UHGV virus genome: UHGV-0135757
Direction: 5' to 3' (one strand)
From: a virus
DNA: 10,798 bases
A program made the position numbers and the translations under genes. This document shows positions 1,623 to 6,334 of this stretch, one piece after another. The notes beneath the pieces were generated by a model. It did not search any database. It was not told the DNA's origin and saw only the letters and a program-made list of their open reading frames with translations. Every line of letters starts with the position of its first letter. Within the stretch, counting starts at the first letter, position 1.

Positions 1623-4064
1623 TTAAAAATCAGCCTGACTCGGGATCAGTTTTTGCCAGATAACTGAAACGTATTTTGCCTGGTAACGGGCGTCATCAAG
1701 TGCATTATGGCGCTCACCTTCGAATGGAATAGCCGTTCTGGCATCGAAGTCTATGGCTTTCCCCAGCTCAACGATTGTGCGTACATCGCGATCGTTGTAG
1801 TAACGCCACGGGCAGGGGATCCCCTGCCGTTCGTATGAACGGCGCAAAATCGTGTTGTCGAAGTTGGCTCCATTTCCCCAGACCTGAACAAAAAATTCAC
1901 CGGAGTTTTCGTCGATAAATTCCCGCAATTGTAACAGTGCATCATCTAACGGGATTTCATCGGTCATAATGGCAGATTGCGCTTCGCGTGATTGCTTAAG
2001 CCACCATTTAATGGTGTCCCGATCAATGACTCCGCCAGCAGTTTCCAGATCGATAGTCTTACTAAATTCCGGTCCCATATCTCCGGTTTGCGGATCGAAA
2101 AATATTGCACCTATTGAGATGATCGGGGCATCAGGATTTTTTCCCATGGTTTCAAGGTCGATCATTAGATGGTCACACGTCCTGCTGGTGGATGTGATTT
2201 CTTGATGACCGTTCACCTTAATTGAGTGATCTGCCGTCTCGCCAGTTTCATTATCGCTATCGTGATGCTGATTGCCGCCAGTGTTCTCCTTGTGTGGATG
2301 TTCAGCGCCTTCCATTTCCTCCGGATCATCTTCCTGAACTTCAGGCTGATTCTCTCCATCGAATATTTCCAGGCATGTTGCGTCACCCATCACCGCACCA
2401 CAATCAGGGCAGTTGCCGCCACCGCTCTGACCGCAGGCGGTGCAGACTTTTTCCACTTCCTGTTGCGCCACTGGTTCGGATTGTTTCGTTTCTGGCTCGT
2501 TTTGTAACGCATTTGGGCTGTTTTGTTCCGCTTTTTGGTCGTTCCGTTCCGATTCATGCTGGTTCTGGTTCACAGAATCGCGAGTCTGGATCCCTTTGAC
2601 CCATTTCGGATCATTCGGGTCGCTAATCCCCTCAACAAATTCACCACGCGATACAGCAAGTAACTTATCGGCGTCAGGCTGGCTGATATTGGCTGCCTGC
2701 ATAATTTTGTTTACTTCGTCAGCGGTGACTTTTACTTGGTTAGCGGAACTCACCTGCGACTGAGCATCCAGCGACTGCGCGTTCTGGCCATGTTCAGTTG
2801 TATCCGGTTCCATTGTTTCAGTTGTTGCCTGTTCACCTGCCATTGCGTCAGATGGTTGTGGTTTTTCTTCTTCTGTTTCACGCTCAGTAACCACCTCGCG
2901 GTTAATTTCTTCCAGGATATCTTTTTCCGGCGTATGCCGGGCAGCTGTGAGAGTTTCCTTGCTGGGGTTCTCGTGATCAGTTTCCGTCAAATAGGCGTTG
3001 ATATACCCCTGAAGGCGTCCCGGGTAGTGATAAAATTCAGGGTGTGCGCTTCGGATAAGTGCAAAAATAGCGGCGCGGGAATAGTCCAGAATACCCGGGG
3101 TTGCACGAAGTGCTGCGGACCATTCTTTGAACGGATTTTCTTTGTTCAGAACTACTTCTTTTGCGCGACGATAAACGCTGCCCGGAATTTCATAAATATT
3201 AAAATCCATCGGAAGTGTGGCTGCTGCAATCTCCACATCCAGTGTGTCGAGGGTGTGTACTAAATTCGGATTGCGATCGGTTTTGTTCCCACCGCCAGCA
3301 TTAGCACCGGAAGCCGTGCGGGTGATGCGTGAAACACGATTTCCTTTCATCCACTCTTTTGTCAGCAGACCCCGATCAGTGTAGTCAGCGTCCAGGTATG
3401 CTTCGAAAAAAGCAGTTATTAGTCCCAGGTCTGAATTACCAGGATTAGGGAAAACTTTGTCAGTGTCACGAACCAGTTTGTGGAGGTCGCGAATCTCCAG
3501 CGAGTCGAGCAGACTGGTTTTATGCGAAATAGCCAGGGCAGTAACAGCCGGTAGTTCTTCAGCCCGTGCAATGTGTAATGCCTGGAGTTCGTCGCGTGAA
3601 ACGTGCGTTACTGGTTTTTCGCTGCCGTGTTGAGCAAGCCAACGAATGGGCAGTTCCTGACCGGAGACAGGCAGAAGCATGCTCTCCTCAATCTCAGTCA
3701 TGTCTTCGCCGTTGATGTTGGTATTGTCAGTGCTGGCTGGTTTGTCCTGAACAGAGGGGGAAGGGCCGATAAATGTCATTGTGATGCCATCTTTCCCGCC
3801 TTTTTCATAGCGGTTGCAGAATTCAGTATCAAACACGCCTTCTGGCGGAAGGTCGTCAACAACGGGCAAATTGACGCGGACGGGTTTTTTAAAGTCGTCT
3901 TCATCATAATCGTTGTCATCCATTGCGGTAATGCAGCGGGAGATTGCAACAGATAATTTTTTTGCTGTAGTCCAGTAAAAACCACCTTTAATTCCTAGGC
4001 GTTTTCTTACTTTGTCATTTTTTGCTTCGCAATATAGTGCAAATTCTTCTTTATCAGTGCTCAT
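1623..4064 (-). CDS. Large prophage protein: RecE-like N-terminal region, a Cys-cluster (zinc-ribbon-like) motif, and a C-terminal DnaQ-type DEDDh 3'-5' exonuclease domain
   Basis: 813-aa ORF. C-terminal ~190 aa show the three DEDDh motifs: Exo I MIDLETMG, Exo [14 protein letters not shown], Exo [12 protein letters not shown]. The middle is acidic and Q-rich with [24 protein letters not shown]. The N-terminal ~550 aa resemble the non-nuclease N-terminal part of Rac RecE as I recall it. Start ATG at 4064 has GAGG about 10 nt upstream. Confidence 0.8.
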
Positions 4065-4157
4065 TATTGGTAAACCTCATCACAGATTTAAGGGTGAACA
4101 AATCTCTGCCATTGCTGACATATAAGAATGAAACTGGATATTTATTACGGTGCTGTT

Positions 4158-4358
4158 TTAAAATCCTGCCGGGATTTCGTTATTATCCTGGTGAATAACT
4201 TTATCGACCGGATAACAGTTGCCTGGAATTTTCTGTTCGGTTGCTGCTGCCATACATTCCTGCATTGTTCTGTGAACACTGACTGCAATATCAACTGGCT
4301 CTCCGGAAACAAGAAAAACCGTCAGAATAAGTGCAAATACTGGATTCATTGTGCTCAT
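4158..4358 (-). CDS. Hypothetical small protein (66 aa) with hydrophobic N-terminal segment; possible membrane or secreted peptide
   Basis: ATG at 4358 overlaps the stop of the upstream small ORF as ATGA, suggesting translational coupling. N-terminus MSTMNPVFALILTVFLVSGEP is strongly hydrophobic. No family recognised. The track's longer 81-aa form starts further upstream without coupling. Confidence 0.4.
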   Translation of the reverse strand: MSTMNPVFALILTVFLVSGEPVDIAVSVHRTMQECMAAATEQKIPGNCYPVDKVIHQDNNEIPAGF

Positions 4359-4534
4359 CCTTTTGGCATCAGACGTAAACGGGCCAGCATTGAAACAATG
4401 CATACTTTATTTAATAACTCCCGTTCGTGTTTTCTTTTGTTAATGGCATCTTCAGTAAATACAGGATTACTGATAGTGACACCAATTTCAAAACAACCTT
4501 CAGACGTATTAACGTTTGGTAATAACGTTTTCAT
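4355..4534 (-). CDS. Hypothetical small protein (59 aa)
   Basis: Internal ATG at 4534 has GAGGG 7 nt upstream on the minus strand. It is the first ORF after the long leftward leader. It is not arginine-rich at the N-terminus, so it is not an obvious N-type antiterminator. No family recognised. Confidence 0.35.
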   Translation of the reverse strand: MKTLLPNVNTSEGCFEIGVTISNPVFTEDAINKRKHERELLNKVCIVSMLARLRLMPKG

Positions 4535-5189
4535 TATCGCGCCCTCAACAATGAGTTTTGTGATGCGGTGCCTGGTGCCTCCAGGTGACGTTAACCAGTT
4601 AACAATTAACGCCGGATACAGAGAATCCACCCATAACACTGTTTTTGGTTTTAACTGTTCCGCGTGCGCTTAGCCGCATTCACCGCATCACAAAATTCAC
4701 TTTAAAAAGGGCGGCAGAGCAGTCACGGAGTAAAACTGATACCGCCAAACGTCACCAGAAAATTGATAACAGAGGGCGTTGCAGCGGGGTTGTCACTTAA
4801 GCGTATGGTCAACCTGACAATCCGGTGTCCTCAACGGGGAAAGAGTAACCCCGCCATACTTACCGCCGCGCCATTTCGCGGATTACCACAACGCTGAGAG
4901 CACTTAGCCAGTTACGGCACCACACTTTGTCGCGGTTCCATAAATGCCCTCATCGTTGCACCCTGGTCTCTTCCCAGGCGTCAAACCGGATCGCCGCGCT
5001 GGTTAGGCGTCTTATCAGCATCATCATTGACTTGCACATTCCGGCTACCTGGTTTGTTTGCCCGAGCAAGGAGTGGATTGTCCCCTTTAACGTCCCCAGA
5101 CCGCTAACGACGCATGTGCCATACGCCGTGTTACAACCAAATTTTGTTAGTACCTTGTTTGTTGGTCTGGAAAGAAAGATAAAATGAAG

Positions 5190-5228
5190 TTGCGCATTAT
5201 GCAAGTGTTTTTATTGCGAGATATGCAA
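5190..5228. promoter_or_regulatory. OL-like operator pair: two 15-bp TTGC-N7-GCAA palindromes, presumably overlapping the leftward early promoter
   Basis: Seen directly: TTGCgcattatGCAA (5190-5204) and TTGCgagatatGCAA (5214-5228), centres 24 bp apart. The same TTGC-N7-GCAA pattern recurs between the repressor and cro-like genes (5997-6011). A CATAAT -10-like hexamer lies between them on the minus strand. Confidence 0.45.
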
Positions 5229-5240
5229 TTTGATGGGTAA

Positions 5241-5262
5241 TGAAAAGCCACCTTCGGGTGGC
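5241..5262 (-). terminator. Rho-independent terminator downstream of the repressor gene
   Basis: On the minus strand: GCCACC-CGAA-GGUGGC (6-bp GC-rich stem, 4-nt loop) followed by UUUUCAUUA, about 20 nt after the repressor stop. On the plus strand the hairpin is not followed by a U-tract, so it is unidirectional. Confidence 0.55.
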
Positions 5263-5283
5263 TAATTGATGAGGAAGTAAGGG

Positions 5284-5976
5284 TTAATTGTGTCGTTTAA
5301 GGGTTTGTGACTGGCTGATTAAGACCTTTCCAAAGACCATAAACCGGTGTTCATTTTCGCTGGTAATTCCCCATTCACGGTAAATCTGGTTATCAGAAAT
5401 CACCAGCAGTTTGTCAGGAATCATTTGAAGTCTTTTAACGTATATTTTGTCATCAAAACCAAAGACATATATACCATCACCATCAAACTGATTGATGCTG
5501 ACATCAACGAAGATGAGATCTCCTGGCTCAATGGTTGGACACATACTGTCCCCACGAACGTTGATAACTTTAATGTGATTGGCTGGTCGTCCGCCAAACA
5601 TCGATACAGCATTATCAGTTCTGTATTCAATGGCATGAATCACATCAATGACATCACCGCCCTGGATAAGGCCATTTCCCGCACTGGCACTGACATCCAG
5701 CATTTCAATACGGAATACATCCTTCACCTGCGCAACATCCTCATTATTACTGTTTTTATATACAGTATTACTTTTGAGGGCAGAGGTAAAGAGATCAGCA
5801 ATATCAACACCTAAGCTCCTGGCAATATTACTCAGGGCTTGTTCAGTGAATTGTTTCTGCTTACCTGTTTCCAGGCGCGAGATATTCGCCGCATCCACTC
5901 CTATTGCTTCAGCGAGATCGGCGATTTTCATGTTCTTCGCCTGGCGAAGTTGTCTGACTCGGTTTCCTATGTTCAT
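5284..5976 (-). CDS. CI-type prophage repressor (N-terminal XRE-family HTH, C-terminal S24 LexA-like autopeptidase domain)
   Basis: 230-aa ORF. N-terminus MNIGNRVRQLRQAKNMKIADLAEAIGVDAANISRLETG is a classic HTH. C-terminus has the S24 serine motif VRGDSM and a downstream Lys (YVKRL), with an Ala-Gly pair in the linker (SASAGNG) as a possible RecA-stimulated cleavage site. Divergent from a Cro-like gene across an operator-rich intergenic region. Confidence 0.9.
   Translation of the reverse strand: MNIGNRVRQLRQAKNMKIADLAEAIGVDAANISRLETGKQKQFTEQALSNIARSLGVDIADLFTSALKSNTVYKNSNNEDVAQVKDVFRIEMLDVSASAGNGLIQGGDVIDVIHAIEYRTDNAVSMFGGRPANHIKVINVRGDSMCPTIEPGDLIFVDVSINQFDGDGIYVFGFDDKIYVKRLQMIPDKLLVISDNQIYREWGITSENEHRFMVFGKVLISQSQTLKRHN
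5748..5767. promoter_or_regulatory. Near-consensus LexA (SOS) box inside the repressor gene's linker-coding region
   Basis: Seen directly: TACTGTTTTTATATACAGTA matches the E. coli LexA-box consensus TACTGT(AT)4ACAGTA at 18 of 20 positions, with CTGT-N8-ACAG intact. It encodes residues NTVYKNS between the HTH and peptidase domains. Confidence 0.45.
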
Positions 5977-6073: not shown

Positions 6074-6334
6074 ATGCAATCACCATTACGAAATGTGCGT
6101 AAGGCGCACGGGTTTACTTTGCAGCATGTTGCTGCGGGCGTTCAGGTTAATCCAGCAACGCTGAGTCGTATTGAGAGACTGGAACAAATTCCATCTATCG
6201 ATCTTGCAGAGCGTCTGGCCAATTTTTTTAAGGGTGAAATCAGCGAAATGCAGATTCTTTATCCGGCACGTTTTCAATCTAGCCAAAACCAGAATGGGTT
6301 TAAACCACAGGAACAGGAGGTGAACCGTGGGTAA
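6074..6334 (+). CDS. Cro-like small HTH transcriptional regulator (XRE family)
   Basis: 86-aa ORF with GGAGG 4 nt upstream of the ATG. HTH-like segment HGFTLQHVAAGVQVNPATLSRIERLEQIPS. Divergent from the repressor gene. Confidence 0.8.
   Translation: MQSPLRNVRKAHGFTLQHVAAGVQVNPATLSRIERLEQIPSIDLAERLANFFKGEISEMQILYPARFQSSQNQNGFKPQEQEVNRG

Follow-up and report, generated by a model that had tools for sequence, protein, structure and literature searches.

A conserved structured RNA in the early leader of a dicF-carrying lambdoid prophage

The leftward early leader and the DicF module

The window, by which we mean the whole stretch of DNA that was analysed (10,798 nt of the virus genome UHGV-0135757), covers the part of a lambdoid prophage that holds its immunity and early genes. 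Its features around the leftward early operon are listed here, with arrows giving the direction of the minus strand:

6074..6334, plus strand: cro-like gene
5284..5976, minus strand: gene for a cI-like XRE/S24 repressor
5246-5263: terminator hairpin of the cI-like repressor gene
5190..5228, minus strand: two OL-like operators read from the sequence, TTGCATATCTCGCAA (5228->5214) and TTGCATAATGCGCAA (5204->5190)
5201->5196, minus strand: CATAAT, the -10-like hexamer of the presumed pL promoter, just outside 4640-5185
4962..5128, minus strand: core of element A, about 170 nt and five helices including a pseudoknot, from comparative analysis
4887..4960, minus strand: P6, a helix of about 20 bp in which UGCAACGAUGAGGGCAUUUA (4960->4941) pairs with UAAGUGCUCUCAGCGUUGUG (4906->4887) around a 34-nt insert
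4886->4761, minus strand: element B, the 5' extension of the 190-nt DicF precursor, from identity to Qin
4760->4709, minus strand: the DicF sRNA, 52 nt (Rfam RF00039, 76.7 bits against a gathering score of 48, model positions 1-52 of 52, E = 6e-16)
4557..4697, minus strand: dicF-dicB spacer, collinear with K-12 Qin, with a sub-threshold resemblance to STnc100
4355..4534, minus strand: dicB, 59 aa, ATG at 4534, the first leftward protein-coding gene (Pfam DicB PF05358, 5.7e-38)
4158..4403, minus strand: ydfD-like gene (Pfam DUF1482, 8e-25)
1623..4064, minus strand: gene for a RecE-like exonuclease, 813 aa (Pfam Exonuc_VIII and Rv2179c-like)

Since cI, the operators and cro lie to the right of 4640-5185, and the genes from dicB onward to its left, this interval is the leader of the leftward early (pL-type) operon. 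It is untranslated and forms, on the minus strand, a polycistronic array of non-coding RNA modules, transcribed in the order 5' leader (about 60 nt), element A, P6, element B, DicF, spacer and dicB. The operator-like repeats at 5190-5228 share the form TTGCAnnnnnnCGCAA, and their TTGCG/CGCAA half-sites are also found between cI and cro. A consensus scan called no promoter at 5190..5228, so that the transcription start is placed by synteny only. In the 813-aa protein the N-terminal region is of the Exonuclease VIII (RecE-like) kind and is fused to a 3'-5' exoribonuclease domain that is Rv2179c-like.

An earlier note, made from the letters of this DNA alone, had described the interval as ORF-free, GC-rich and dense in hairpins. 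It does lack a conserved reading frame: the ORFs that overlap it all start with TTG and are 44-86 aa long, and the longest two (84 and 86 aa; 4950..5204 minus, 4927..5187 plus) match no Pfam or PHROG family. These ORFs, and the hypothetical ORFs placed by depositors over the leader DNA of mEp460, cdtI, Ayreon and PhiR40_1, are what could be adduced for a small or unconventional protein, such as an N-like factor, encoded in the leader. The depositors' ORFs, however, differ among themselves in strand and frame, and the NCBI pipeline annotates nothing over the leader; a frame anchored on the invariant 19-mer described below is open in at most 8 of 29 diverged homologues; the indels in the variable loops of the leader RNA have lengths that are not multiples of three; and its substitutions compensate one another across helices. 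We regard a protein encoded here as extremely improbable. As to composition, the interval is richer in GC than its neighbours (0.51-0.55 vs 0.38-0.44 on either side), which is the sense in which the earlier description holds, the whole window being at about 0.48.

About half of 4640-5185 is occupied by elements that are already known, namely DicF and its precursor, which like dicB further left are textbook material; the earlier note overlooked DicF (52 nt), about 125 nt of the known DicF precursor, and dicB as the first leftward gene. DicF is a textbook sRNA, a regulator of cell division. In the window the full-length covariance-model score lies above the curated gathering score, the 3' end is a terminator-like hairpin (GGCGG...CCGCC) followed by UUUUU, and the context is that of a prophage operon, with dicB (PF05358) starting 175 nt downstream and the putative precursor extension upstream. 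Leftward from 4892 the window is collinear with, and 95% identical to, K-12 Qin (window 4892->4073, L154 2252-3071), the identity reaching 97% over 4892->4701, and this identifies element B as the 5' extension of the 190-nt DicF species. In P1, the start of the ban operon transcript matches element B at 75-80% identity, the match overlapping an annotated 'dicF-like region'. The spacer gives a partial match to STnc100 (RF02076) at 4697->4557 (38.8 bits against a gathering score of 47, E = 1e-6, model positions 21-154 of 206), which falls below the family threshold; it may be a diverged relative of this prophage sRNA.

The inverted repeats reported earlier are all present: GCGGGGTT at 4784-4791 with AACCCCGC at 4847-4854 (an 8-bp stem), CCGCG-ccattt-CGCGG at 4866-4881 and CCTGG-tctcttc-CCAGG at 4962-4978. 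They differ in what the homologues say of them. The long-range 8-bp stem is disrupted in the relatives L125 and L091, which keep a local hairpin instead, shortened to CGGG/CCCG (CGGGG-9 nt-CCCCG in the window). This local hairpin of element B, CGGGG-UUACUCUUU-CCCCG, is accompanied by CCGCG-AAAUGG-CGCGG (4881->4866), whose stem is invariant in all homologues and is for that reason evidence neither for nor against pairing. A reading of 4784-4854 as a degenerate tRNA was dropped; ARAGORN found no tRNA or tmRNA in the window. The third repeat belongs to element A and is taken up below.

Upstream of 4892 the window no longer resembles Qin. It is here more than 97% identical to the ORF-free pL-yfdP leader of SfV-like lambdoid phages (mEp460, cdtI, Ayreon, PhiR40_1 and Stx2c phages among them), regardless of their immunity region. 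No complete E. coli genome or phage record matched the exact junction of SfV-like element A with Qin-like dicF-dicB (query 4540-5290) over at least 80% of the query. By these comparisons the window reads as a rare recombinant, joined within about 4770-4892, a segment common to both lineages. Element B and a DicF-type terminator hairpin also follow element A in the SfV-like leaders, so that DicF-like sRNAs with varied 5' seeds form a family within these arrays. The members have in common the terminator hairpin UUGGCGG...CCGCCCUUUUUAC and differ in their seeds (e.g., GCUGUGUGUAGUC); they are found at about 2900-2960 in L008, at about 3900-3985 in L001, and downstream of element A in L013, L084 and L041, and none of these five reaches the Rfam threshold for DicF. 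In the rightward operon of SfV-like relatives, isrK and C4 antisense RNA lie side by side over the Rha/antirepressor region, both above the Rfam threshold (L001 6450-6638; L002 5360-5548; L004 and L006 4880-5068); neither is present in the window.

Structure, probable processing and distribution of element A

Before the DicF precursor comes a conserved RNA of about 240 nt with a tight fold. It consists of element A, whose parts are given below in the order of the transcript, and of the helix P6:

5128->5108, minus strand: H1, hairpin CGGCGUAUG-GCA-CAUGCGUCG
5104-5097 with 5051-5044, minus strand: P2, a long-range helix that encloses a variable hairpin
5049->5031, minus strand: near-invariant 19-mer, GGUAGCCGGAAUGUGCAAG
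5009-5007 with 4999-4997, minus strand: stem a
5004-5001 with 4987-4984, minus strand: pseudoknot of AACC with GGUU
4978->4962, minus strand: P5, hairpin CCUGG-GAAGAGA-CCAGG, the CCTGG/CCAGG hairpin of the earlier note

Covariation across homologues had been set beforehand as the test of the proposed RNA structure, and it is strong for element A as well as for P6. Twenty diverged sequences (mean column identity 66%) were aligned with MAFFT independently of any structure. In this alignment 95.3% of the pair positions of element A can pair, against 31-47% when the partners are slid by one to three columns; 15 of the 32 pairs changed on both sides in a compensatory manner, and none of 500 shuffles reached the covariation score. 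With 82 distinct sequences the corresponding figures are 95.8% paired and 16 compensatory pairs, in an alignment that was made to the model and so leans towards it. The same 20 sequences show the pseudoknot, in which the loop of a short stem, UCACCA, pairs with a downstream GGUG. In P5 four of the five pairs are compensatory and the loop GAAGAGA is conserved, which bears out this hairpin of the earlier list. The covariance model built for the element (R1) finds a single match in the window even with filters off (5135->4943, 148.8 bits, E = 3e-45); the rightward operon holds no further copy. Many of the conserved pairs are G-U, which would be A-C on the other strand, so that the functional strand is that of the leftward transcript. 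The earlier note's reading of the region as a non-coding leader, transcribed leftward and containing structured RNA, is supported.

Comparison between sequences was more telling than the folding energy of the single sequence, which is not unusual for 4761-5190 (z = -1.1) and marginal for 4886-5135 (z = -2.0), at best weakly out of the ordinary. About 40 nt of element A are near-invariant and unpaired. RNAalifold pairs the H1 loop GCACAU with AUGUGC in the 19-mer, a possible second pseudoknot, both sides of which are invariant. The pseudoknot loop is UCACCAG in most relatives, complementary to the DicF seed CUGGUGA, and its partner GGUGUGAC resembles the seed; in the window the loop is UAACCAG (5005-4999 vs seed 4757-4751), with one mismatch to the seed, and the complementarity is probably due to chance.

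P6 lies between element A and element B. The duplex is predicted in most of 29 representatives, with inserts of 5-90 nt, and in an alignment of 16 sequences, K-12 Qin included, 92.2% of its pair positions pair, against 32-60% in register-shifted controls, 10 of the 20 pairs being compensatory. Its counterpart in Qin is CCAUAAC-GC-GAAAGCGCAUGG / CCGUGCGCUUCC-G-GUUGUGG. The 3' strand of P6 contains the motif UGCUCUCAG (4902->4894, minus strand) that the earlier note had called boxA-like; as one strand of a covarying 20-pair helix, it is selected for pairing and not as a single-stranded NusB/NusE site.

The 190-nt DicF species of K-12 is RNase III-dependent (PMC10448788), and its 5' end, at about position 2246 of L154, falls within the 3' strand of the helix homologous to P6. 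P6 is thus a likely RNase III processing site at the border of element A and the DicF precursor. If processing follows that of its homologue in K-12 Qin, RNase III would cut P6, freeing element A and making the 5' end of the 190-nt precursor, which RNase E would then trim to the 53-nt DicF. Fragments resembling the T-arm and acceptor end of a tRNA (GGTTCGATTCC...) were seen in or just after the P6 inserts of L009 (about 2620-2710), L103, L076 and L097 (1077-1203), in the last of which Rfam calls a tRNA-like match of 127 nt.

Element A is not confined to the SfV-like leaders. Sensitive BLAST searches found segments of 78-83% identity in the ban operon of P1, P7 and D6, directly after tRNA-Ile and before ban; in epsilon15-like phages (phiV10, typing phage 9, SPN1S), directly before tRNA-Arg(UCU); and in Klebsiella and Enterobacter phages. 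The conserved 19-mer GGTAGCCGGAATGTGCAAG, used as an exact word, was found in at least 120 viral contigs and in 24 species-representative genomes. These 24 are all of Enterobacteriaceae or Erwinia, save one probably mis-binned contig and one chance match. The former, a 1.7-kb contig in a Bacillota/Oscillospiraceae bin, carries a full element A (L150 1152-1329, 178 bits) and is probably enterobacterial phage DNA; the latter, from a metagenome bin of the same assignment, scores 10 bits (L138 5562-5650). The core is present in 1833 of 5426 complete E. coli genomes, about one third, and always unannotated, the NCBI pipeline having no annotation for it. Among 100 sources each locus has one copy, except L026, in which one leftward leader holds a tandem pair about 630 nt apart on the minus strand (4787-4964 and 3980-4159; 176.7 and 125.2 bits).

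Three settings can be told apart. In the lambdoid one, element A begins 45-150 nt past the terminator of a co-oriented cI-like gene in all of about 23 representatives (within about 10 nt of the -10 box in L015 and L045), so that it comes first among the modules downstream of pL for every type of immunity, and it is followed by an ORF-free stretch of 450-1200 nt. In the epsilon15-like setting, an operator-flanked promoter between oppositely oriented portal and terminase genes precedes, in this order, element A, P6, tRNA-Arg, a DicF-like sRNA, a strong terminator and a Phage_gp49_66 ORF. In L008, L009, L025, L043 and L084 this promoter (TTGACA ... TATTAC) lies about 40-230 nt before element A and coincides in part with the inverted repeat TTACC-N5-GGTAA, near which ATTATTACC recurs; the repeats are probably repressor operators, so that the RNA array looks regulated. 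In the P1-like setting, element A lies inside the ban operon. Tight linkage to a tRNA is a feature of the P1-like and epsilon15-like subsets only. A tie of element A to the yfdPQR type of operon was considered and rejected, since ST64B has an 815-nt ORF-free pL leader before yfdP/Q/R-type genes (L157 9239-10053) and no element A in it; that leader may hold a different RNA element.

We found no family to which element A belongs. The 4227 models of Rfam 15 gave no match to the minus strand of 4887-5135 at gathering thresholds, nor at E <= 10 with permissive filters, and in 21 related loci Rfam found no family over element A, its calls being tRNA, C4 and isrK elsewhere. No description of the element was found in the literature, which was covered by a full-text search for the 19-mer and by searches on antitermination of the put-like or N-independent kind, on leaders of the SfV/yfdP type, on transcriptomics of P1 ban and on surveys of sRNAs in prophages. 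The sRNAs Pas, AgvB and AsxR were set aside, being located in the late region. Element A is thus apparently an undescribed, widespread, structured RNA.

Possible roles of element A

The leading hypothesis, which we hold tentatively, is that element A is an RNA antiterminator. It would act in cis on the polymerase that has just transcribed it, making that polymerase resist the DicF-type intrinsic terminator, and Rho over about 650 nt of untranslated RNA; read-through would let dicB and the distal early genes be expressed after induction, and the job of lambda N/nut or HK022 put would be done by an unrelated RNA. Consistent with this hypothesis, element A is the promoter-proximal first module in about 23 lambdoid representatives, and terminator hairpins stand between it and the next ORF in the non-P1 arrays that we examined (the window, the SfV-like leaders, L013, L041 and the epsilon15-like arrays), the DicF terminator in the window and a DicF-like GGCGGUACCAG...CUGGUACCGCUCUUUUU in the SfV-like leaders. 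In the epsilon15-like arrays the U-tract of the terminator abuts the ribosome-binding site of the next ORF, which can therefore be reached by read-through only. The length of the untranslated leader transcript and the lack of any N-like Pfam family among 29 representative early-left ORFs point the same way, and the near-invariant unpaired segments suggest contact with a conserved host machine. According to the literature, N is missing from lambdoid phages whose left operon is of the yfdP/Q/R type, and these 'may' rely on an RNA like put, none having been identified (PMC12315714); element A is a concrete candidate for the RNA guessed at in these phages.

Other features are less easily accommodated by antitermination. 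There is one copy of element A per phage and none in the rightward operon; the P1 copy lies in mid-operon, after tRNA-Ile and before ban, downstream of the terminator of the dicF-like region; some epsilon15-like arrays have a P6-type helix or a module of about 200 nt upstream of element A; ST64B, with the same type of left operon, does without it; and the consensus scan gave no call for pL. Over most of the leader G outnumbers C in the transcript, which may be a poor Rho substrate anyway, the composition being uninformative on Rho sites. The RNase III-type helices and tRNAs that bracket element A resemble, furthermore, arrangements by which stable trans-acting RNAs are released.

This last point leads to a reading that is nearly as likely as the antiterminator, and likewise doubtful when taken by itself: element A would be a discrete, stable RNA, released by RNase III at P6-type helices, by RNase P/E at neighbouring tRNAs or by the 5' end of the transcript, that binds and titrates or redirects a conserved host protein or RNA through its invariant loops, its position in the leader merely reflecting early expression. 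Element A is portable as a cassette, since its three contexts are unrelated: pL leaders of lambdoid phages, the ban operon of P1, and, in epsilon15-like phages, a moron-like unit that separates the portal and terminase genes. Trans action is the rule for its neighbours in the arrays, tRNAs and DicF-family sRNAs, and L025 and L043 have a P6-type helix on either side of it. The tandem pair of L026, the lack of a copy in the pR operon, the single copy elsewhere, the mid-operon position in P1 and the absence from ST64B also speak for a trans-acting RNA. Against this stand the strong positional bias, element A being first after the promoter in every lambdoid representative, the want of a partner that could be named, and the lack of any likeness in Rfam to 6S, Y RNA, tmRNA or other known protein-binding RNAs.

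We consider two further roles improbable. Element A could be a folding or processing scaffold with no function of its own, which sets P6 and the 5' end so that RNase III and RNase E yield the downstream DicF-family sRNA in the proper amount; P6 and then a DicF-family sRNA do regularly follow it, in the window, the SfV-like leaders, L013 and the epsilon15-like arrays. K-12 Qin, however, makes DicF with P6 and without element A, no DicF-like sRNA follows the P1 copy, and the helices upstream of P6, together with the near-invariant unpaired nucleotides, far exceed the needs of a processing helix. Of similarly small probability is a role in gating or cutting the early transcript, as a riboswitch aptamer that senses a ligand or as a self-cleaving ribozyme. 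The compact pseudoknotted fold with its highly conserved junction nucleotides, the possible second pseudoknot (GCACAU/AUGUGC) and the location in a 5' leader speak in its favour, but there is no conserved expression platform, as what follows varies (P6 and a tRNA, P6 and element B, or ban directly), and no Rfam family of either kind matched, even at E <= 10. A hammerhead ribozyme was rejected, the hammerhead-like CGAUGAG not being conserved. We also rejected a type III toxin-antitoxin system, suggested by the RNA-terminator-ORF order of the epsilon15-like arrays; the ORF there encodes a Phage_gp49_66 protein of no assigned function and is absent from the window.

To return to antitermination, the array reading and the mechanism proposed for it, taken as one explanation, have in our judgement about an even chance of being right. 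The wider proposal, that element A represents a new class of RNA-only antiterminator, or more broadly that it is a means of reprogramming RNA polymerase or some other core machine of the host, and that it supplies the missing early function of N-less lambdoid phages and was reused by P1 and epsilon15-like phages, is speculative and rather unlikely as a whole. If it were true, P1 and the epsilon15-like phages would use element A to push transcription through untranslated arrays of sRNAs and tRNAs; if element A acts in trans, it would still add a new kind of structured phage RNA. A further result is that a phage 'leader' can consist of a row of RNA genes with RNase III helices and tRNAs between them, in which the DicF-like sRNAs have differing seeds.

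Comparison with known systems

The earlier note had thought plausible an RNA-based antitermination element, put-like or nut-like, or another structured RNA. A structured RNA is indeed there, but the region is an array and not one element, and membership in either class is not borne out. The stem-loops of put are joined by a single base, its copies lie downstream of pL and pR, and it brings about processive antitermination by RNA alone, giving read-through of terminators in cis when bound to the zinc-binding domain of the RNA polymerase beta-prime subunit. With about 70 nt and two stem-loops (PMC9378689), put differs in architecture from the approximately 170 nt and five helices, pseudoknot included, of element A. 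What the HK022 and element A RNAs have in common is a place at the start of the pL transcript of an N-less lambdoid phage, a folded RNA with conserved unpaired bases, and terminators downstream. They share no similarity of sequence or model: with filters off, model R1 found nothing above 3.7 bits in the early region of HK022, a stretch chosen so as to include putL and putR, in a record that annotates no promoters or put sites. HK022 has both putL and putR, whereas element A is single, has no counterpart at pR and also occurs outside early operons.

The likeness to lambda nut and to the boxA of rrn operons is confined to the motif UGCUCUCAG and its variants in relatives (e.g., GUGCUCUUUUUG), which resemble boxA (UGCUCUUUAACAA) and are followed by a hairpin. 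The motif is, however, paired in P6, no boxB-type loop was found, and no N protein: the left-operon ORFs include no N-like family, 29 representative early-left ORFs having been compared with Pfam. A nut site was rejected on these grounds.

P1 has both elements in its ban operon, oriented as the operon is and 75-78% identical to those of the window: element B stands at the start, whereas element A follows trnI and precedes ban. The order of the two is the reverse of that in the window, about 2 kb of tRNAs and tciABC lie between them, and P6 is missing; the P1 record annotates the dicF-like region only, and not element A.

The closest counterpart is dicBF of Qin in K-12, which is 95-97% identical to the window leftward from 4892 and has in common with it the RNase III helix motif, the precursor extension, DicF, the spacer, dicB and ydfD. 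As in Qin, DicF of the window would be cut out of a long transcript started at a repressor-controlled promoter. The small ORFs ydfABC come after this promoter in Qin, whereas the window has at this place the non-coding element A, joined at P6, and the immunity system is DicA/DicC in Qin and a cI/S24-type repressor in the window.
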